A stretch of 64,000 nucleotides of DNA from an uncultured delta proteobacterium (GTDB taxonomy: Bacteria; Desulfobacterota; Desulfomonilia; Desulfomonilales; Desulfomonilaceae): NCBI GenBank assembly GCA_963789265.1, contig CAWBKB010000001.1, positions 320,001 through 384,000 of the forward strand, given 5' to 3'. Each line of letters begins with the position of its first letter. Within the stretch, counting starts at the first letter, position 1. The notes beneath the pieces were generated by a model. It saw only the letters and a list, made by a program, of their open reading frames with translations, searched no databases and was not told the origin of the DNA. Below are positions 2,170 to 30,493 of the stretch, piece by piece. The position numbers and the translations under genes were made by a program.

Positions 2170-3201
2170 CTACCTCCAAAAAAATGGGGGATACCCATCC
2201 AAGTCTCCCCTCACATATCGAGCGAACAAAAGCGCCTGTGTGTGCACAAGCAGTCCTGTACGAACTTTCTCTCCCAGGAAAGGGTGTGTGATTTCCTCCT
2301 TCTTGCGATCCTGATAAGCTGTCAGGACTTTCTTCCTCGTTTCGTCATCCATGAGCACGGCCCCGCTTTCAGTGTGCTTTAAGCCTTTGCCTCGGATTTG
2401 CTGCCGATTCACTAAAGATAAGGCTAGCCGATCTACAAGCACCGGCCGAAACTCCTCCATGAGATCCAACGCCAGACTCGGTCGGCCAGGCCGGTCTTCG
2501 TGCAAAAAACCGACACAGGGATCCAAACCAACCGCCTCCAGAGACGAAACTACGTCATGAGTCAAGACAGAATACAGAAACGAGAGCAGAGCATTTATAT
2601 TGTCCAGCGGGGGACGCCTATTGCGCCCGGTAAATGTAAAATCCTCCTTTTGTGCGATGATTAGATGATCAAAAACCTGGAAATAGTGCCTGGCCGCTTC
2701 TCCCTCCAGTGCTCGGATTGTTTCCAGCGGCGGCCCGTCTTGCAGCGCCTCCACGATTGCGGCCAACTTTGCAGCAGCCTCTCCGACGCACGCTTGATCG
2801 ATTTTGTCCGAATGGTCTCGGACCGCGCGGAGAAGAACATGTCTGCTATTGAGGACCTTTGCAATGACAATCGAACGTGCCACAGCCACACACGTCTGCG
2901 GGTCGTCGGCTTTACGATAGTGCTCTTTTCTTAACAACACATTGCCGTGAACAGGGCCCTGAACTCTTGCCCAGAAGCGCCCGGTCATGCTCATGAATGA
3001 TATGTTTACCTGATGGGCGCAGCACAGATCCATCAGAGGTTGGCTGCATGTCACTCGCCCAAAACACACAATCCCGTCCAGAGTATGGATTGGCACTCTA
3101 AGCCTTGTCTCGTCTCCCATCTGCACTTTTACCGTGTCACCGTCTCGGGAAAGGTAAGATCCTTCAGTCATGACGTACAATGTGTTAAGCACACGCTTCA
3201 T
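2170..3201 (-). CDS. cas1: Type I-C Cas1
   Basis: MKRVLNTLYV...EGEAA..YF, RNRRPPLDNINALLSFLY, GFLHEDRPGRPSLALDLMEEFR, C-terminal YPPFFWR; 343 aa. Confidence 0.97.
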   Translation of the reverse strand: MKRVLNTLYVMTEGSYLSRDGDTVKVQMGDETRLRVPIHTLDGIVCFGRVTCSQPLMDLCCAHQVNISFMSMTGRFWARVQGPVHGNVLLRKEHYRKADDPQTCVAVARSIVIAKVLNSRHVLLRAVRDHSDKIDQACVGEAAAKLAAIVEALQDGPPLETIRALEGEAARHYFQVFDHLIIAQKEDFTFTGRNRRPPLDNINALLSFLYSVLTHDVVSSLEAVGLDPCVGFLHEDRPGRPSLALDLMEEFRPVLVDRLALSLVNRQQIRGKGLKHTESGAVLMDDETRKKVLTAYQDRKKEEITHPFLGEKVRTGLLVHTQALLFARYVRGDLDGYPPFFWR

Positions 3202-3203
3202 GG

Positions 3204-3941
3204 TTAAATCTCCATCGCTTCCCGGATCATCCGTCGAATATAGGCGTGAACCTTGGACCGATGGCTCGTGATTTTGGGCATACATGAGTCAAGGAGCGAG
3301 CACTTTTTGCATTTGTTCTCGTACTTGGCCTGAGGCGTTATACCCGATCGCATTATCTCGTGGAGCCGCAAGGCAGTGGTGACCGTTTCAGATCTGAGAG
3401 CCGCGTCGAACTCCACTTCCAGTCTCCTTGCAGTTTCTCCAAAGAAGATTGCCCCGCGCTCCACCCTGACTTCGAGCATCTCCTCCAAGCACATTGCCTG
3501 AGCGCAGACCTGCACCTCGAAGCTCCTATTCGAGCGCAGTCGGCCGCGCTTATACTCCACGGGATAAGGACGCCACTGTCCTGTGGCGCCAGGCAGACTG
3601 ACGCTCCTAGGTTGATCATCGACTGACGTCTCTGCCGCAGACACTCCCACTCGGTGGAATTCCACTACGTCGGCTTTACCTGACAGGCCGAGTTGAAGCG
3701 AGCGAATCAAAAGCCCGCGGGCTATGCGAAGATCCCCGCGTACCTCCGTTTTTGTAAGGCTGTGGACTCGCTCATGTCCCACCGTGCCTTCGGCAGTGAA
3801 CACATTGTCGCCCCACAAACCCTCAAGATGCACCAGTGCCGCACGACGTTCGCAGAAACTCAAATGCTGTAACCCGGATAGGGGCAGGATAGCTTCTTCG
3901 CTGAACCTGAAACTCGCTCCAACATTATACGATTGTACCAC
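3204..3941 (-). CDS. cas4: Cas4 exonuclease
   Basis: LQHLSFCER, GKADVVE, PVEYKRG, QVCAQAMCLEEM, CKKCSLLDSC Fe-S cysteines; start uncertain. Confidence 0.95.
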   Translation of the reverse strand: MVQSYNVGASFRFSEEAILPLSGLQHLSFCERRAALVHLEGLWGDNVFTAEGTVGHERVHSLTKTEVRGDLRIARGLLIRSLQLGLSGKADVVEFHRVGVSAAETSVDDQPRSVSLPGATGQWRPYPVEYKRGRLRSNRSFEVQVCAQAMCLEEMLEVRVERGAIFFGETARRLEVEFDAALRSETVTTALRLHEIMRSGITPQAKYENKCKKCSLLDSCMPKITSHRSKVHAYIRRMIREAMEI

Positions 3942-6127
3942 AGTCCTCGTGCCTCAACTTCTCCAGGTACTCCTGCCATGTAGCCGAGAAAATCGTCATA
4001 CAGTAGCTTCCAGCAGTACAGATCACGGAACCCCGCAACCTTCGTCAACGCGTATTCGACTTCCCTGTAACGCCAGATTTGAACGCTCAATTGCTGAAAA
4101 ATGCTGGTGTCCACTTGCTCATGCTCTCTAAGTTTTTCTAGCAAATCTTGGTCTACAACGGCTGTAACCGTATCGGAATCAATGACGGTGAAGTTCTCGG
4201 AGACAACGGGGAATTGCAGATTTCGTTCCGCCTTCGAAATTACATCAGAAATATCTCTCAGTTCCTGTTGCCGCACTTCCCGTCGCATAGCTTCAGTCGA
4301 TGCTTCGGCACACACTCTTCCTTCGTCAAACAGTTCCCCCAGAATCCTGGCGGGGACATCAAAGCCAGGATGCCTTTTGAGAAACCCGCCATGCTTCAAC
4401 TCGAAATCCCAGACGGTAGAATCGGGGTATTCTCCCTCTCGGCTAACGCGACCTCCCACTTGAATTAAGCTGTTGAGGCTGCATCGCTCCCGTAAGGCGT
4501 TGCGAAAAGACAAATTAACACCCGCTTCCACGCAAGAGGTGGCCACTAGCGTCCAATCATCATCTGCGAGAGCGTACAGACGTCTCTTGACTCGATCAAG
4601 AGTGATTTTTCGGTCCCGAGGGCAGAGCGATGTTGACAAATGTTCCACCTTGTTTCGACCACAGCGTCGGTCGATGTCTTTGGCCAGCACTGCGGCGGAT
4701 TGGACCGTATTGACAATCAAAAGCCGAGGGCCAGCTATCTCTGGCAACCATCGAAGCAGGCTCTCCTCACTCAATAAATCAGCCCTGGATTGGTATGTTA
4801 CGCGTCGCTTTTCATACTTTGAGAGTTTGGCTTTGATCTCTGCAGGAACGAGTTCGGGCAGGTCGACAGGCCTTTCCGAGAACTCCTGAAGTTGCCAGAA
4901 CCTATTCAGAGAACCAGAACCGAGCACGAAATGGCAACCCCAATCCGATTCCAACTCGCGTAGCCACTCCCATGCCTGCGGCCACAAATGTGTTGGAAGA
5001 GCCGCGTGGGCTTCATCGATGAAGACCGCTGAACCAGGCAGTTGATGGAGTTTGCGGAGACTGCCAGGACGATTTGCCGCTAAAGTTTCGAAAAACTGGA
5101 CAGCAGTGGTGACCACGATGGGGGCTTTCCATAGAAACGAGAGATGCCTCGATTCAAGATCTTCGAATTCTGCTTTGTGATGATGCGCTGCAACAACATC
5201 TGCTTGCAGCTCATTAGGTCTTACTAAGGCACGGCGGTATACCTTTACCGACTGATCAATAATGTTGGTGAAGGGCAATACCACGAAGATCCGACGAAGC
5301 CCTTTCGCTTGGGCAGCATGAAGAAGGTGAGCCATCACAGCGGTAGTCTTGCCAGTCCCTACGGCGCTGTCACAAGCATAAAACCCGGGACGAGGATCAG
5401 CATTGCTGCAGGCCTGATAAACTTCGCGGCGAAGAACGTTGCGCTCATGTTCCTCTTCTCCCAGGCCACTGACATACTCATTCAATAGCGTCAGGCGATA
5501 ATCAGGGTTTAGCGGTGGACCACAGCGCGAGACGATCTTGCCCTCGTGCCTCGCACTATCGTAATGGTCCGCATCGACCAGACATGACAGGGCCACACGA
5601 TAGGCGAGCGAAGGGAGGGGCGAGGGCCTGCTAGGGGACATGTAGTCTTCTTGATGAATCAGCATACCAACGGCTTTGTCGTGTGTCCCCAGATAATTAT
5701 GGAGGCGCTGGTCTGTAATAGATTTGATGTTCAAGTCTCTGAACACTTTGCCCGGCCCATTCAGACGCTGATCCTGAAAATCGGGCAATCCTTTATGATG
5801 GGAGTAAACGGCACAAGCGGCGAGCAGGTTGTTAATGCTTGGCTCAAAAAGGCGTGCAACGCCCGCGTCCACATGATTGATGGGCAGTCTTTTTGCCCGG
5901 AATGCCGACGCCAGTACCTTTTGATTCGCAGGCTCCAACTTCCCTAAATCATGAAATTGCGCCGCAAGACGGATAGCCTCTACAAACCGATCTGCATCGC
6001 CGTGCCAGTATTTCACTGCCTCAAGTGCATTTGTACAAGCGAGTTCTGTTACTCCACAGACATGGTCAGCGTAAGATTGAGGTGGAATGCCCCGCTGGGG
6101 GCGCGAACTGTGCGCAAGTGGTTCCAT
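3860..6127 (-). CDS. cas3: Cas3 HD nuclease-helicase
   Basis: HD motifs (YADHV, FHDLGK, SHHKGL, LVDADH), GTGKT, DEAH, QVGGRVSR; the long overlap with cas4 suggests a 1-nt indel near 3970 with the true stop near 3926. Confidence 0.95.
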   Translation of the reverse strand: MEPLAHSSRPQRGIPPQSYADHVCGVTELACTNALEAVKYWHGDADRFVEAIRLAAQFHDLGKLEPANQKVLASAFRAKRLPINHVDAGVARLFEPSINNLLAACAVYSHHKGLPDFQDQRLNGPGKVFRDLNIKSITDQRLHNYLGTHDKAVGMLIHQEDYMSPSRPSPLPSLAYRVALSCLVDADHYDSARHEGKIVSRCGPPLNPDYRLTLLNEYVSGLGEEEHERNVLRREVYQACSNADPRPGFYACDSAVGTGKTTAVMAHLLHAAQAKGLRRIFVVLPFTNIIDQSVKVYRRALVRPNELQADVVAAHHHKAEFEDLESRHLSFLWKAPIVVTTAVQFFETLAANRPGSLRKLHQLPGSAVFIDEAHAALPTHLWPQAWEWLRELESDWGCHFVLGSGSLNRFWQLQEFSERPVDLPELVPAEIKAKLSKYEKRRVTYQSRADLLSEESLLRWLPEIAGPRLLIVNTVQSAAVLAKDIDRRCGRNKVEHLSTSLCPRDRKITLDRVKRRLYALADDDWTLVATSCVEAGVNLSFRNALRERCSLNSLIQVGGRVSREGEYPDSTVWDFELKHGGFLKRHPGFDVPARILGELFDEGRVCAEASTEAMRREVRQQELRDISDVISKAERNLQFPVVSENFTVIDSDTVTAVVDQDLLEKLREHEQVDTSIFQQLSVQIWRYREVEYALTKVAGFRDLYCWKLLYDDFLGYMAGVPGEVEARGLWYNRIMLERVSGSAKKLSCPYPGYSI

Positions 6128-23224: not shown

Positions 23225-23339
23225 TTGCTTGCTTATTTATTTGGCGAAGATCTATCGCCGCCGACAGGCTACTCGCTCTCCGTCCAAGAGACAGACCACC
23301 TTGCTACCTTTGGCCAACCACTGTTTCTTCAAAACTTCT

Positions 23340-24273
23340 TCACGCAGCCCGATGTTCTTCCACGAACCTCCTAATGTTCCTGTGGAGGAAGTTCCGCATC
23401 AGGTCCGCGATCTTGTCGCCGTCCTCTTCAAGCGCGAAGTGTCCTGTGTCGAGAAGGTGAAACTCCAGGTTCTTCAGGTCTCTCTTGTAGGGTTCAGCGC
23501 CGGTTGCAGGGAAGATGGGATCGTTCTTTCCCCAGACAATGAGCGTCGGCGGCTGGTGCTCACGGAAATAGGCCTGCCACTTCGGGTACAGCGGTGGGTT
23601 GCTGCCGTAGCTATGAAAAAGAGCGAGCTGGATCTCAGCATTTCCCTGCCGGTCGAGCAGTGGCTGGTCAATGTTCCAGGTATCAGGACTGATTGTCTCC
23701 TTGTCCCGAACCCCCTCGGTGTATTGCCATACGGTGGCTTCCCGGGTGAGGAAGCGGCGCAGGGGCTTATCGCGCTCTGCCGTCTTTTCCTTCCAGTAAG
23801 CCTTGAGCGGTGTCCAGAAATCGTTGTCAATGCCCTCGTCGTAGGCGTTGCCGTTCTGCACCACCAAGGCCTGGACGAGGTCGGGGTGCTTGGTAGCCAG
23901 ACGGTAGCCGACAGGCGCGCCATAATCCTGAACGTACAGTGTGGTACTTCTTCAGTCCAACCGCATCGGTGAACTTGTCGATCACATCGGCCAGATTATC
24001 GAAGGTGTACTCGAACTCGTCCACGGTCGGCATCGAGCTATTGCCAAAGCCGGGGTAGTCCGGTGCAACCAAGTGGAACTCATCGGCCAGCGCCGGGATC
24101 AGGTTGCGGAACATCTGCGAACTGGTCGGGAAGCCGTGTAGCAGGAGCACGGCGGGGGCGTCCTTCGGTCCTGCCTCGCGGTAGAAAATATCCAGACCGT
24201 CTATCTTCGCAGTCCGGTAGGCCACCCTTGCTGAAGTTAACGCTCCTGCGGAAGTTTCATTCTCTGTTTTCAT
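23340..24273 (-). CDS. Alpha/beta hydrolase (epoxide hydrolase/dehalogenase-like), frameshifted near 23940
   Basis: [37 protein letters not shown] across two overlapping ORFs. Confidence 0.85.
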
Positions 24274-25153
24274 GATTGTTCTCCTTAGTGCTGTTTCTTA
24301 TTTGCTCCGATGCTTGATCGCCCTTGCCTCGCGGAACGTGAGCCGAGCAGTGGTCCGCTGTGTAGAAATCGTGGGGCGAGATCGAGACCTTGAAGATGCG
24401 CTCCGTGTTCCGCACTCTTCTCCGACGCTGCTGTTGGCCACTTCCTACGCGAAGGCCGGTCAATTCAAACATCATGCTGCGGGTCTATGAATATCAGAGC
24501 TTTCCCAATGCCTTTTGACGGAGACGGCTTCTTGCCAGGCTTTTGTTCAGAAAATTTTGATGGTTAAACCAGTACAAATTCCAGCATTCCGCGCACAAAT
24601 TCCGATTTTGCCAAGAACCCGGCCGGACTCCGTTAAACAAAAATTGTACATTGGCCCGGCGTCAGTCAACACGACAACTAAAGCAAAGAATTGGGGTCAG
24701 GTCTTGTTTCTTGCCTTTTGCCGTTGCCGTTGGTAGAGCCTGCTCCCTGTAGAGCAGTGGAGTCAAACGTGCGCAGTGATCTCATGGTGTGAAAAGCCGT
24801 ACTGCAGATGGGCTTTGTCGACTGCCCTGTCTCGTTTCGATGCGGACCGAACTCACGGCAAGAGTCCATCGAGAGACGGGAAATTCCGGGGACACCATGC
24901 TTTTTTCCCGTACCGCATATGGCGATAGAATTTTCTACTTGGCCGCTGATGACGTTTGATGTTGGTGTCAGGCATTGAAATGCCATTATAGGTCGCACAG
25001 AAATTTCAATATACTTCGTCATATTCAGGTAATAACAGTCTGTTCAAATAAGCCATCAGAGATTCGTCTGGATGTCAAATTTCAAGACCTGCCCCGTTTT
25101 TTCATCTAGCGGTGTGTTCTTTTATTGCCCTTTGTGCAGGGCCAGTATTCTAT

Positions 25154-25765
25154 TCACCCTGTGGTAAGGTAAAATATGACAAGTGTCACCGGTGGTGCAG
25201 TGAGCAGCAGGGCATAAAGTCCATATGTATTACAAATATTTCTAAGACCTATCCGTCGGGCCGAGCACCAATCAATCTGAAAATCCGCTCGATTCTTAGC
25301 CTTGAAAAGTTCAAAGTCGATGACATCGTGATTTTCCTGATATCGCCGCAAAATGCTAGCATATCGTTTTGATATCTTTTGGATTTGCTCAGGAGTATGG
25401 CCATTTTCCTCATTGTAGGGCGCTAGCTGGAGAAGATCGTTGTAAACATTGGTGATCTCGTTGGCGCAGTTATAGAGCCTTTCAGCCCTAAGTTGATAAT
25501 TCTTGGAAGCCTCAAGCAATGACAGCACCAATATGAACAATGACGCCAACAGCGTGGTAAATGCCAGAATATTTAGATATTTTACATTGAACACGAGAAA
25601 ATATGGTGCTAACCGCAAGCCAATTACATATATGCTCAGAATCGCGATCGATAAGATAGACCAGAGACTTTTTGTCTTGCAGCGCCTGTAGGTATTATAT
25701 CTAGCTCCTTTAGTGACCCACATTTTTTTGGCAAGCTCTTGTCCAAACGGAGTTTTTTCTGCCAC
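25154..25765 (-). CDS. SLATT-domain membrane effector
   Basis: MWVTKGARYN..RR, two TM helices, SLLE...YQLRAERLYNCANEI, Y..IL..YQENH..IDF, C-terminal TM. Confidence 0.85.
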   Translation of the reverse strand: MAEKTPFGQELAKKMWVTKGARYNTYRRCKTKSLWSILSIAILSIYVIGLRLAPYFLVFNVKYLNILAFTTLLASLFILVLSLLEASKNYQLRAERLYNCANEITNVYNDLLQLAPYNEENGHTPEQIQKISKRYASILRRYQENHDVIDFELFKAKNRADFQIDWCSARRIGLRNICNTYGLYALLLTAPPVTLVIFYLTTG

Positions 25766-25925
25766 GAGGCGCCTCCGGGTGTTCGCTTTGTCGAGCGTAG
25801 GGGCCGCCTCTGAAATAAAAAAACTCTCCGAAGTGCTATGCCTCGGAGATCCTGGGCCTCACAGGGCTCGGATTACAAATACCCCCGCCGTGCTGACAGG
25901 AGCCTCCCTTGCGGGGAGGCAACCC
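25766..25925 (-). ncRNA. Candidate structured ncRNA of the RT-SLATT system
   Basis: Four predicted stem-loops in 160 nt with a single-stranded AGUUUUUUUAUUUCA segment between two of them. Confidence 0.5.
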
Positions 25926-26447
25926 CTACGAAATCAATCCTACATCAAGATCAAGATCTGACAAGTGTTTTTTCTTCACGCCGATAAATAAGATTTCGAT
26001 TTGCTCGCGTGAATAGCGTTTTTCAGGATTCAACAATCCCCTATCAGCTAAGTATTTGATTTTGGCAGGGACTGTCTCATATAATTCATAATTTTGTATG
26101 TAGCCACCAAAGGTGTCATACTTTATCTTGTAAAATGCAGTTGACAATTTCTTTAGCTGCCCAGGCGTGCGGTAGTCGAAATCAGATAGCCTGCGAAAAA
26201 AACCTCTAATGATTCCGTCCAATTTATGGAGTAACTGCATGTCATTGATCTCTGCGAAGTAAAATAACCAACCATATCGTTTCTGCTCACTAATCGCTCC
26301 AGTTATTTTTTCGTTGAGATCTTCTATGAAGACCCGTTCTTGGGTTTCCTTGGTCATCCATCCGCATTTCTTCAATTGGTCCCCCGAATTATGAAGGTAC
26401 CAGGTGAACCTGGCAGCTATCGAAGTGAGGAATCTCTCTATATTTTG

Positions 26448-28057
26448 GGGTGCCGCGATTTCTTGTCATGAGTGGCTCAAGTAAAAACGAGTAGATAGCA
26501 CGGAGAAAGGAGTGGTTTCCGGTCCTCTTATGGGGTACATGACGTTTGGCGAACGATGTATCCGCTGGGGAGGACCGGATATGGAACAAGGAATACCGAA
26601 CATAATCTCGCTGGTCAATGAGATTCTCGCCTTTGTGCGAGAGTCAGCGCAAGGAATGGAAATCGGGGAAGTAGAAAGGCAGCTTCTTCCCATGGTGATG
26701 GCGGTCGGGAAAGCGGCTCTTGAAGAATTTGTGTCTGAAAAGGGGACCGGATATGCCGGCAAGGAGATCATCGAACCCCAGGGCCATCGATTGCCATATG
26801 TTCGTGACAGGGGATGTGCATATCGGTCCATCTTTGGAACGATATCCATCCGGAGAGCCTACTATCACGCAACCGGCTCACCGGGAGTCTTTCCTTTGGA
26901 TGGAGAGATCAACTTGCCTGAGAGAGGCTATTCATACCTGGTTCAGGAGTTCTCTTCCCGGCTTGCGGTTTCGATGAGCTACGAGGATGCGGAGGAGATT
27001 TTTCGTTCCTTCTTTCCCGTAAGGATGCCAATTCGTTCACTGGAGAGCATTGTGGGAGACGTCTGCGACGAGGTGGATCGATACTACGCAGAGAAGGCCC
27101 CGCCGGATCTTTGTCCGGATGCTGTGGTAACGGTCGCTACCGTAGACAAGAAGGGGGTGGTTATTCGTAAGCCCCAGGAAGGCGGGGCCGGTCCCGAGAG
27201 GGTCTCCGTTGATCCCGACAAGCCCGGAAAGAAGAAGATGGCAACCGTGATCTCCACCTACGTCACTCCACGTTACGTCCGCACGGAGGACGACATTGTC
27301 CGTGAGGTATCGGACGAGGGTAGTTTCGATTCCAGGCCCAAACCCCAGGACAAGCTTACGTGGGGCAGCCTCACCGATGGTTCGGAAAAGACGGTGGCCC
27401 GCCTGAAGAAGGCTGTCGAACAGCGATTGCCGAAAGGTAACGAGCTGGTCTGTATCCTGGACGGAGAGCGTTCTCTCTGGGCACTGGTATGCGCATATTT
27501 TCCTGCAGCCTTTTTCGTGCTGGACATCTTTCACGTCCTGGAACACTTGGGGAAAGCCGCTCTTTGCTTTTATGACGAGGGCAGCCCGCAAGCCAGAGAA
27601 TTCGTGACGGAGAGATTGAGAATGCTCCTGGGCGGCAGGGCCGGCAGGCTTATCGGCGGGCTCAAGCAGATGCTAACCAAGCAGGAACTCTCCGGCGCCA
27701 AGAAACATTGCATCGAACAAGTCATCGGGTATCTCCAACGAAACCGCAAGCACATGCGGTACGAAATCTGCTTGGCAAAAGGCTATCCCATCGGCAGCGG
27801 GGTCATTGAAGGAGCATGTCGCAACCTCATCAACGACAGATTGGAACTCACGGGGATGAGTTGGACGATCCATGGAGCGGAAAGCATGATCCACCTGAGG
27901 GCCGTTCACATCAACAACGACTGGGATCTCTTTTGGAATTATAGACGAAGATCGGAGAGGCGACGCCTCTACGGCATCGAAGATACAAACTCTCCCGAGA
28001 TCCGGGATCAAGAACTACCGCGTGCCGCATAACTCCTGACAGAAAGTAGCGGCACCC
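26448..28057 (+). mobile_element. ISKra4-family-like insertion sequence, 1610 bp
   Basis: Imperfect TIRs GGGTGCCGCGATTTCTTGTCA / GGGTGCCGCTACTTTCTGTCA; 9-bp TSD TATATTTTG at 26439-26447 and 28058-28066. Confidence 0.92.
26581..28032 (+). CDS. DDE transposase (ISKra4-like)
   Basis: TVDKKGV, ILDGE..LW, LDIFHVLEHL, GYPIGSGVIEGACR. Confidence 0.9.
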   Translation: MEQGIPNIISLVNEILAFVRESAQGMEIGEVERQLLPMVMAVGKAALEEFVSEKGTGYAGKEIIEPQGHRLPYVRDRGCAYRSIFGTISIRRAYYHATGSPGVFPLDGEINLPERGYSYLVQEFSSRLAVSMSYEDAEEIFRSFFPVRMPIRSLESIVGDVCDEVDRYYAEKAPPDLCPDAVVTVATVDKKGVVIRKPQEGGAGPERVSVDPDKPGKKKMATVISTYVTPRYVRTEDDIVREVSDEGSFDSRPKPQDKLTWGSLTDGSEKTVARLKKAVEQRLPKGNELVCILDGERSLWALVCAYFPAAFFVLDIFHVLEHLGKAALCFYDEGSPQAREFVTERLRMLLGGRAGRLIGGLKQMLTKQELSGAKKHCIEQVIGYLQRNRKHMRYEICLAKGYPIGSGVIEGACRNLINDRLELTGMSWTIHGAESMIHLRAVHINNDWDLFWNYRRRSERRRLYGIEDTNSPEIRDQELPRAA

Positions 28058-29154
28058 TATATTTTGTTCTCTTATGGTTACTTTGGGTAACTCTAAGTGA
28101 TAGCCCAAATAATCGTACGGGCAGTTGGAAATATTGCACTCCGTTTTTCTTTTACTGAGGTTCAAGTCCAATTCGGTCAGGTCACGGGTTATTTCTGTTT
28201 CAAGTTCGTCTGCATTTTCTTCCTGGACAAAGAACAAAATATCGTCCACGTACCTAAAATATTTGAGCCCGTACCGCTGAAATTTCTGGTCCAATTGATG
28301 GAGATAGATATTTGCTAGAATGTTTGATATCGCAAGACCCTGAGGTATTCCTTTGTCGGTCTTATACTGTCCGCGGTCAGATCTGCTGTTGAGTGGAACT
28401 GTTGGTGTGCTGACGGCTAGTTTCAGCAACGTAAGTATTTTCGGCGATTTAACCTTGGCACGAATAATCGACATAAGGACCAAGCGATTTATGCTATCAT
28501 AAAATGACTTGATGTCACCTTTGAAGTAACATAGAGTTTGCTGTCCATTCGATTTATCGAACTCTTTTATTTCTCTTATGTAATCATTTGGCAACCTTCT
28601 GTTCACAGAGAGCGGAAACACTTGATGCATGAATTCCTTCAATAAATACAAGACTATGCGATCGCGCATGGTAGCGACTGAAATCACTCTAGGAAGTTTG
28701 CCCCTGCCTTTGCTCAGTAACTTCTCAACGTATGGCGTAAATCTATATGTTCCTTTATTACATTTCCGATAAATAACTTGGAAGTGTTCTTTTTTATCTC
28801 GATTGAAGGTTTTAATACCAATTCGATCCAAACCTCTGGTCGGTTTTTTCGAGACAAAATTATCGTAAGCTGATTCAATGCTCTTTATAGAAAATAATCT
28901 CTTGAAACGTTCTGCAGGATAGGGCATCGCTGGCATATCACCGTTTCACAAAACTACCGCATCTTTTCTCTATCACAGCAACTGTTTCATTACAATTGAA
29001 ATCTGATACGTGGCACTACGGGAGGAAGTTTGGGGACGCTCTTAAAAAATTAACAAACTTTCTGCCGTAATCTGTAGTGATTCCCATGGGCAATCTTCTT
29101 TATTCTACGCGCGGCGTAGCCAACACTTGGAACTGTCATTCCAGGTGGGGGGCA

Positions 29155-29344
29155 GGGGTCAAGTCTACTCTTGGCTCATCTGCGCGCTGGCATCCAGTGC
29201 CGTAGGGGCGCCGAAGGGGTCAAGTGTGCTCTTGACTCACGTTGCGCGTGTTACTCGATGTCATGGTGCGCCTAAATGAGCCAAGAGCAGACCCGACCCT
29301 CTTTGGTTACAGCCGAACCATGAGTCAAGAGCAGACCTGACCCC
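29155..29344. repeat. Four REP-like units, two direct then two inverted
   Basis: GGGGTCAAGT..CTCTTG.CTCA at 29155 and 29216; ATGAG.CAAGAGCAGACC.GACCC at 29276 and 29320. Confidence 0.8.
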
Positions 29345-29545
29345 TTTGCCTCTTTCAGGCGCTGACGGAGGCTGTGCGCGACTCGGCCGTACCCTCAGGA
29401 AACACCCTCGTTCCTTGCTACGGAGAAGTTTTTCCTTGACGGAGGGCCTTTCAATGGGTGACCTCTTTCGAAGGTTCCAATTTCTTGAGGTATTTCTAAA
29501 GAAAGCGATTCGTTTCGGACAGCGAACCACTATAGGAGGCCTGTA

Positions 29546-30493
29546 ATGTCCTACAGTCAAACAGTATACGATCTTCTCGAAAATTTTGTTCCAATAGGAA
29601 CATTCTCGTATGCAGCGTTGGTGAGCCGAGAACCCCATTATGAGCATTTTGCTGAAAACGTCCGGGCAGCCGCCATTGCCTCAACATTGGGGCTTAAGAG
29701 CTTAGATTACGCAAAGCGCCGGTACGATTGTAAGGACCAGGGGGTAGAGACGGAAGTACTCCCAATTAACGCATATATCGACGCGTATCACTTTACGAAT
29801 TCATATGTGAGGAATTGCATTGCCTCTCTAAAGACTGATGAAAAGCCGGAGCCTTCTGCTGGAGAGTTTTGTGCGGCAGTTGTTCTCACAAGACTACCCT
29901 CCAGTTTTTTTTGCGCTCATTTAATGTACGAATTGGGGCACCGGTATGAGGGGCATGCAATATCGAGGCTTATTCTCGAACAACTTGCTTGGGCCTATGC
30001 GGCCTTCAAAGCTCAAGATGTAGAGATTGTAAAAAAAATCCGTACAACGAAAACATTGTCAACACTCACGTCATTTGCCCCCCAAGCGGGTGAGTTATAT
30101 GGTTTCTTAAGTAAGAAGACCCATATTGATTATTCGATTCATCCGGAGTTCTTAAGAATCTATGATGGTACAAATGCTATTATTCGAAGCCACGGCGACT
30201 ACATTTTGCCTGAATACGGTTCGGTAATCCTTCTGCTGGGCGATCTATTTGGTTTAGTATGGGAGGCATCTCAGTTTCAATATATAGTTTCACCGCAGGC
30301 GGTTGAATCGAGGCGAGGCACTTGTTTTCCCAAACCAGATCGAGCGTACCTTTTAAGCATGCAGGAATACCTGAGTAATATCGACCAAGCCGTACAGGAG
30401 GCTTATCATGCTCTAAATGAAGAATCGGGCGAAATTTCTGCGGCTCTGAGAATCTTTAGAGAATGGTCTACTCAGAGAGTAACTAACGGCTGA
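29546..30493 (+). CDS. Hypothetical protein, possibly DUF5677/HEPN-like
   Basis: 315-aa ORF with GGAGG RBS; SRLILEQ and LYGFLSKKTH motifs. Confidence 0.6.
   Translation: MSYSQTVYDLLENFVPIGTFSYAALVSREPHYEHFAENVRAAAIASTLGLKSLDYAKRRYDCKDQGVETEVLPINAYIDAYHFTNSYVRNCIASLKTDEKPEPSAGEFCAAVVLTRLPSSFFCAHLMYELGHRYEGHAISRLILEQLAWAYAAFKAQDVEIVKKIRTTKTLSTLTSFAPQAGELYGFLSKKTHIDYSIHPEFLRIYDGTNAIIRSHGDYILPEYGSVILLLGDLFGLVWEASQFQYIVSPQAVESRRGTCFPKPDRAYLLSMQEYLSNIDQAVQEAYHALNEESGEISAALRIFREWSTQRVTNG

Follow-up and report, generated by a model that had tools for sequence, protein, structure and literature searches.

Gene content of the locus

The window (the whole 64,000-nucleotide stretch of DNA analysed here) carries all genes of interest at this locus on its minus strand, namely those for a reverse transcriptase (RT), a template RNA and a SLATT effector, and an insertion sequence (IS) interrupts the RT gene. 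The main features are as follows:

28058..28936, minus strand: N-terminal 293 codons of a UG17 (DRT10) RT, including YVDD (PADLOC RT_UG17, E 4.1e-94)
28058..28066, minus strand: target-site duplication, copy 1, 9 bp (identical 9 bases at both IS ends)
26448..28057, plus strand: ISKra4-family IS of 1,610 bp that splits the RT gene (terminal inverted repeats, NCBIfam NF033572)
26512-28032, plus strand: IS transposase ORF (NCBIfam NF033572, 249 bits against a cut-off of 205)
26439..26447, minus strand: target-site duplication, copy 2, 9 bp (identical 9 bases at both IS ends)
25926..26438, minus strand: C-terminal part of the UG17 RT, open to the TAG stop at 25928-25926 (PADLOC RT_UG17, E 6.5e-31)
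25796..25930, minus strand: probable DRT10 noncoding template RNA of about 135 nt, with P1 to P5 and a template loop (covariance model R2, MFE fold)
25154..25765, minus strand: SLATT_5 two-transmembrane effector gene, 203 aa, GTG start, intact (Pfam PF18160, E 1.7e-46)

The N-terminal part of the RT covers positions 4-282 of the 429 in the RT_UG17 profile of PADLOC and is also recognised by Pfam RVT_1 (E 2.6e-22); its ORF starts at 28936 and runs into the IS past codon 293. The C-terminal part, represented by the ORF at 26375-25926, covers positions 300-428 of the same profile (PADLOC), and the RT frame resumes right after the IS as QNIERFLTSIAARF..., in agreement with the family consensus ...VERFIxSxAAKF.... 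The earlier note had placed the element between DRT9 and DRT10, but the RT assigns the locus to DRT10 itself (RT_UG17, E 4e-94). The SLATT protein spans positions 6-190 of the 192 in PF18160 and is matched as well by PADLOC RTasSLATT (E 2e-37) and by NCBIfam SLATT_5.

The IS is bounded by terminal inverted repeats of 26 nt (26448-26473 and 28032-28057). Among the genome matches listed, seven full-length copies of this ISKra4-family IS are 100% identical, the copy that splits the RT gene included, which suggests a recent burst of transposition and, therefore, that the RT was split by a recent insertion; the source of the event is a recently active ISKra4-family element. Since the RT is split, the DRT10 system of this strain is probably inactive now, and no cDNA is expected from it today. 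An IS-like fragment of 52 nt (83% identity) was also found at 23274-23325 of the window. A Pfam scan of ten neighbouring ORFs did not find a defence-island context. Near the defence locus, an ORF of 148 aa (23827-24273, minus strand) matches an alpha/beta-hydrolase profile over the first 74 of its 245 positions only, and is probably a gene fragment.

Fold of the template RNA

The RT and SLATT genes are separated by a spacer of 160 nt, and the predicted RNA begins inside the last codons of the RT and ends 30 nt before the SLATT start. Its parts, together with a putative promoter, are:

25937..25964, minus strand: sigma-70-like promoter candidate in the last RT codons, with -35 TTGTCA, 16 nt and -10 TAGGAT (consensus scan, 9/12 matches)
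25916..25930, minus strand: P1 basal stem, 5' strand, containing the RT stop UAG (pairs with 25810-25796 in the MFE fold; covariation)
25906..25915, minus strand: P2, short hairpin CCC GCAA GGG stacked on P1 (MFE fold; 98.7% of cells paired)
25881..25903, minus strand: P3, hairpin of 9 bp, 25903-25895 with 25889-25881 (MFE fold; 95.7% of cells paired, 8/8 pairs compensatory)
25871..25877, minus strand: linker motif UGUAAUC running into P4 (invariant or nearly invariant alignment columns)
25849..25873, minus strand: P4, outer helix AUCC/GGAU and inner helix GCC/GGC (MFE fold, covariation)
25826..25848, minus strand: P5, hairpin of 8-9 bp with a 7-nt loop (MFE fold; about 90% of cells paired)
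25811..25825, minus strand: predicted template loop AGUUUUUUUAUUUCA, AGU7AU3CA, 15 nt, single-stranded (MFE fold, published loop position)
25796..25810, minus strand: P1 basal stem, 3' strand (MFE fold, covariation)

P1 consists of 13-15 bp and closes a junction carrying the four hairpins P2 to P5, and its 3' strand, which lies beyond the U-run, is a perfect complement of the RNA 5' end over 15 bp. The RT stop codon lies within P1 in the sub-clade of the window, where UAGGGG pairs with CCCCUA, and the 5' strand of P1 overlaps the end of the RT ORF in 20 of the 51 family matches. The minimum free energy of positions 25930-25760 on the minus strand is -74.1 kcal/mol (z = -2.42), and two of 200 shuffles fold as well, so that on folding energy alone the RNA would appear only mildly unusual and the evidence weak. 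The sigma-70-like site would start transcription near 25930, and cyanobacterial relatives carry TGTTAYAAT 5-7 nt before P1; both signals are suggestive only.

Comparative evidence

The comparative evidence for the template RNA is strong across the homologous sequences compared. A protein search returned 641 relatives of the RT at E <= 1e-20, the full-length ones being at most 57% identical, and an alignment of 37 RT relatives was used to retrieve 79 genomic loci. In 56 of these loci the RT is followed by SLATT on the same strand, with a gap of 127-238 nt in 53 of the 56, and the same structural plan recurs in MFE folds of the relatives' RT-SLATT gaps. An independent MAFFT/RNAalifold analysis of 14 trimmed RNAs recovered only P1 (12 pairs, 11 of them with compensatory changes), because the inner hairpins were misaligned, and covariance models with a hand-drawn structure were therefore used. 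The first model, seeded with the window and the relatives L001 and L005, gave 27 matches at E <= 0.02, all at or just after an RT stop. Since the window sat in this first seed, a second model (R2) was built from six relatives with the window excluded; it matches the window at 25798-25930 on the minus strand with 90.2 bits (E 6.1e-19), and this is its sole match both in the window and in the 6.06-Mb genome.

A third model (R3), built from the 27 matches of the first, gave 52 matches at E <= 0.01 in 50 of 80 sources and extends the family to betaproteobacterial loci with the same gene order. Fifty-one of these matches lie on the RT strand, 46 of them with a start that falls, relative to the last base of the RT stop, anywhere from 11 nt upstream to 43 nt downstream, and the remaining five starting 54-163 nt downstream of it; the furthest of these is a second copy in L070, and one match in L051 is antisense. 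In alignments that were fitted to the model structure, a bias that favours that structure, 91.8% of cells are paired for the first model (26 distinct rows) against 66.0% in shuffles, and 88.6% for R3 (51 rows) against 60.9%, with none of 500 shuffles reaching the observed value in either case; slid controls of the pair counts gave 39-50% over both alignments and 40-50% for the first model. Compensatory changes were found in all 40 modelled pairs in both the 26- and the 51-row alignments, including all 13 modelled pairs of P1, in which 91.5-93.6% of cells are paired. The inner helix of P4 is about 87% paired and the outer one 65.9-78.7%.

These results also bear on the structure proposed in the earlier note, which had described four stems in plus-strand coordinates: GCCTCCC (25902-25908) with GGGAGGC (25914-25920), ATCC (25849-25852) with GGAT (25870-25873), TCTCCGA (25825-25831) with TCGGAGA (25843-25849), and GAGGCG (25766-25771) with CGCCTC (25805-25810). 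All four are present in the DNA exactly there, and as RNA structure two of them hold, while the other two compete with P1 and are not conserved. ATCC/GGAT is the outer helix of P4, which is supported although it is the weakest of the helices (78.7% of cells paired over 26 distinct rows, 65.9% over 51), and TCTCCGA/TCGGAGA is P5, supported with about 90% of cells paired. GCCTCCC/GGGAGGC, in the register proposed, is paired in 63.7% of cells against 66.4% in shuffles, with 486 of 500 shuffles equalling or exceeding the observed value; its GCCUC half is taken up by the long-range P1, leaving CCC/GGG alone to form P2. The stem GAGGCG/CGCCTC borrows the 3' strand of P1. P1, P3 and the IS insertion in the RT gene had been overlooked. 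The covariation that the earlier note had proposed to look for across homologous RT-SLATT loci is present, and its central proposal, that the RT-SLATT gap encodes the template RNA of the RT, is borne out by this covariation and by homology to the published DRT10 ncRNA. Its observations thus stand in part and its interpretation is partly supported, with the core right: a reader without tools had recognised a genuine template RNA and where its template loop lies.

Rfam 15 holds no matching family for positions 24500-30000 (searched at E <= 1); its sole match, psbNH (18.8 bits against a gathering score of 45), was rejected as chance. In a metagenome scan, all RT relatives obtained were distant (no more than 44% identity to the first sequence of the query alignment); seven of them have ncRNA matches, none representing the sub-clade of the window.

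Assignment to DRT10

The RNA lies next to a UG17-type RT and is followed by SLATT_5, it is matched by the covariance model, it measures 135 nt with P1 to P5 and covariation, and its template loop is flanked by P5 and the P1 3' strand. We therefore consider it very likely that the minus strand of the spacer specifies the template RNA of an anti-phage DRT10 (UG17) system with the gene order RT-ncRNA-SLATT of the UG17-B architecture, and that the template lies in the loop between P5 and P1. The element is already described, its RNA family, architecture and mechanism having been published in 2025-2026 and being in print since October 2025. According to that literature, UG17 is DRT10, a tripartite system of RT, ncRNA and SLATT (PMC12632851), and it has three subtypes, of which UG17-B consists of the RT, a gap of about 200 bp and SLATT (10.64898/2026.04.29.721553); an ncRNA was predicted in the UG17-B gap, with RNA-seq support in one species (10.64898/2026.04.29.721553). 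Published DRT10 ncRNAs measure about 137-143 nt and have a large basal stem that closes smaller stem-loops and is supported by covariation. Their template loop follows directly after SL5 and has an A-B-A' pattern, beside a large central stem with smaller stem-loops (PMC12632851).

In the available part of Table S2 of PMC12632851, one ncRNA is identical to the L051 match in the template loop and in the other stretches inspected. The published Eco2 model detected that relative with E 1.8e-8, and the segment given as its 'Predicted template loop', AGGAUUUUACUUUAUUAAG, coincides with the one assigned here as template loop (PMC12632851). This entry places the RNA of the window in the published ncRNA class, and the class corresponds to that detected by the Eco2 model of Tang et al.

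Variation among related loci

In five close relatives the order is SLATT-RT-ncRNA, with SLATT abutting the RT upstream and the ncRNA directly after the RT stop (L002 3870-4015; L003 3870-4016; L004 2120-2263; L051 5457-5600; L059 3856-4002). In L002 the distance from the preceding ORF to SLATT is only about 90 nt, not enough to accommodate an ncRNA. The DRT10 papers, in the parts used here, place the ncRNA 'upstream of SLATT' (PMC12632851, 10.64898/2026.04.29.721553). This clade shows the RNA travelling with the 3' end of the RT, the stop codon in the stem, and SLATT on either side.

The DRT10 RT of L051 (Desulfobacteraceae) is also interrupted, at about 2932-4990, by a group II intron on the same strand, whose ORF matches RVT_1 (E 9e-45) and GIIM (E 4e-16); the two RT halves of apparently the same locus appear as separate entries in Table S1 of PMC12632851. 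In Sphingobacterium, L070 carries two tandem ncRNA copies (3887-4009 and 4044-4164) with different template loops and has SLATT on the opposite strand, and in L016 the ncRNA (3947-4066) starts 78 nt after the RT stop and a SLATT gene was not detected. L001 (labelled as a Methanosarcinales MAG), which is the closest relative with a full RT-ncRNA-SLATT set, and L047 (labelled Woesearchaeota) are short contigs of archaeal-labelled MAGs and could be either genuine archaeal DRT10 systems or binning artefacts.

The template loop and its predicted product

The U7-A-U3 tract, which had been proposed to sit in template position, does lie within the template loop. Of the two stems that were thought to bracket it, the one on the P5 side holds, while the 3' closure is formed by P1 with the RNA 5' end and not by the stem around the ribosome-binding site. 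P5 would occupy the place of SL5, the template-boundary element of DRT10 (PMC12632851, section 8; 10.64898/2026.06.29.735271). According to the published account, synthesis by the DRT10 RT is primed on a serine of the enzyme itself, A-B is copied, and dissociation and re-pairing at A' then start the next, telomerase-like cycle (PMC12632851). In the published E. coli DRT10, an RT dimer binds one ncRNA, the template is copied to a boundary about 2 nt from SL5 and long tandem-repeat DNA is made, the SLATT protein also being needed for defence. The Eco3 DRT10 has a 2-nt linker between SL5 and the template and a 4-nt linker between A' and SL1, and its boundary is measured from SL5 (10.64898/2026.06.29.735271).

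The loop of the window is the most U-rich and the joint shortest among the 51 family members compared, in which loop length has a median of 19 nt and a range of 15-25 nt. Its U-run of seven is the longest of the 51 and occurs in the window only; the other 50 loops have runs of at most 5, and 48 of the 51 have at most 4. The six nearest relatives (L001, L002, L003, L004, L005 and L051) have loops of 18-19 nt, for example AGGUUUUAACUUUAUUAA, with templates of the form ...UUUUAAC|UUUA..., so that the loop of the window is shorter by 3-4 nt, and the R2 alignment has a gap of four positions inside it. In the available part of Table S2 of PMC12632851, none of the entries has a U7 in its predicted template loop, and Table S3 of the same paper includes UUU-UAC-UUU among the patterns for the relative in Table S2.

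An A-B-A' arrangement with A of at least 4 nt occurs in 21 of the 26 distinct loops, against 12.8 +/- 2.5 in shuffles, with none of 500 shuffles reaching 21, and the loop of the window contains U-run repeats only (for example A = UUU) and no non-trivial A-B-A'. A threshold of at least 3 nt was uninformative as a discriminator (26/26 loops against 23.8 in shuffles). Another candidate takes the AGAG of the P5 3' strand as A and the AGAG of the P1 3' strand as A', with a period of 16. It was rejected because both copies lie in paired strands and because B would measure 12 nt, by which length repeat addition is already weak in published work.

Guided by the relatives and the published geometry, the loop may be read as a linker GU, A = UUU and A' = UUU, followed by AUUUCA, in which case the 3-4 missing bases would correspond to the non-U 'B' part of the relatives' template. 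The product would then be poly-dA, or (TA7)n if realignment passes the A, and since the U-run is the longest in the family either product can reasonably be inferred by analogy. The (AAATAAAA)n repeat suggested in the earlier note is the same as (TA7)n and would fit the published realignment mechanism, poly-dA being at least as likely. We regard as improbable the more specific proposal that the loss of 3-4 non-U bases collapsed a DRT10 template into a near-homopolymeric U-run from which the RT would make poly-dA, as its sister DRT9 does. If this were true, a single small deletion could switch a telomerase-like repeat synthase to a homopolymer synthase, and the knock-out of the RT by the IS could be a rescue from the resulting toxicity. 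The loop of the window offers a natural test of whether DRT10 enzymes drift towards DRT9-like homopolymer synthesis.

Alternative readings of the spacer

The template of the window may be defective rather than specialised, and it is possible, though we doubt it, that the RNA is a decaying relic in which a deletion of 3-4 nt removed A-B-A' and made U7, so that it is still recognisable and cannot template repeats, the IS-split RT being part of the same loss. The shortened loop with its four-position R2 gap and without the A-B-A' of most family loops agrees with this reading, as do the interrupted RT and the lack of a U-run behind P1, where each of the six nearest relatives has one; moreover, UG17/DRT10 can be toxic and an insertion in the RT relieves the toxicity, according to PMC9226505 and 10.64898/2026.04.29.721553. 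It is less easily reconciled with a structure in which all five helices still pair in the MFE fold and with a locus in which both RT halves and SLATT are still open reading frames. The insertion, moreover, looks recent, given the seven IS copies at 100% identity among the matches listed, and published work indicates that removal of B is tolerated in DRT10 (PMC12632851) and that U-tract templates function with its RT (10.64898/2026.06.29.735271).

Two further readings concern the ends of the RNA. The earlier note had allowed that transcripts might end at the U-tract, and P5 with U7 could be mainly an ordinary intrinsic terminator that ends RT/ncRNA transcripts and limits read-through into SLATT. 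A pattern scan does flag positions 25849-25825 (a 7-nt loop closed by nine pairs, of which five are G-C, followed by the tail GTTTTTTTAT), where a G+C-rich hairpin is directly followed by the U-run, as in a Rho-independent terminator with a G+C-rich 9-bp hairpin and then U7. In addition, the U-run present directly 3' of P1 in the six nearest relatives is replaced in the window by CGCUCGACAAAGCG, and the 30 nt that separate P1 from the SLATT start are too few to hold a separate SLATT promoter behind the RNA. In those relatives the closing stem and the U-run behind it look like the RNA's own terminator; the window RNA, with its terminator-like P5-U7 and without that U-run, may end early or run into SLATT. 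We nevertheless find the terminator reading unlikely: unlike a Rho-independent terminator, the hairpin of the window belongs to a conserved multi-helix RNA with a conserved pairing partner downstream of the U-run, namely the P1 3' strand that complements the RNA 5' end and that termination at P5-U7 would remove from the RNA. P5 is a covarying helix, the loops that follow it in relatives are not U-rich (for example AGAUGGCAAUGUCAAAUUA and UGGAUCUGACUGAUUACU), and the scan gave eight such sites in 4.5 kb against 4.8 +/- 2.3 expected by chance.

The last reading, put forward in the earlier note, is that the fold limits translation of SLATT. The gene is preceded by one further feature:

25772..25776, minus strand: GGAGG Shine-Dalgarno sequence, 6 nt before the SLATT GTG at 25765 (sequence)

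A distal stem between GAGGCG (25810-25805) and CGCCUC (25771-25766) would sequester the surroundings of this GGAGG and throttle translation. The two arms are indeed complementary over 6 bp, with GGAGG just inside them, but GAGGCG belongs to the 3' strand of P1 and is committed to that 15-bp stem in the MFE fold, and GGAGG would be unpaired even with the distal stem formed. Comparative support is absent, neither of the tails of the nearest RT-ncRNA-SLATT relatives, L001 and L005, holding a CGCCUC-like complement, and we consider this mode of control very unlikely.

Comparison with known systems

The closest known systems are the 'Eco2DRT10-like' DRT10 (Tang et al., 2025, PMC12632851) and UG17-B (Sanchez-Nieto et al., 2026, 10.64898/2026.04.29.721553) and the locus described here resembles them in its UG17 RT and SLATT_5 partners, in the size of the RNA (about 135 nt), in its basal stem and four further stem-loops, in the place of the template loop, and in the site directly upstream of SLATT. 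It differs from them by a 15-nt U7-A-U3 loop without a non-trivial A-B-A' (family median 19 nt), by the absence of a U-run after the basal stem, and by the IS-interrupted RT.

With the ncRNA of DRT9 (UG28), the RNA of the window shares a U-run in the template loop and, by analogy, a likely dA-rich product. The ncRNAs of DRT9 and DRT10 are reported to resemble each other (PMC12632851), and the DRT9 poly-U template placed into the Eco3 DRT10 yields poly-dA (10.64898/2026.06.29.735271). However, the RT of the window scores as UG17, with UG28 absent among the 25 PADLOC families listed, and the poly-U of DRT9 is described as universally conserved (PMC12632851), whereas the U7 of the window is a one-off in a UUUUAAC-like clade. 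Finally, following an analogy drawn in PMC12632851, the system may be likened to telomerase RNA in having a short template beside a boundary helix and repeat addition by realignment, while the system of the window is bacterial, protein-primed and dedicated to defence, and chromosome ends are not involved.
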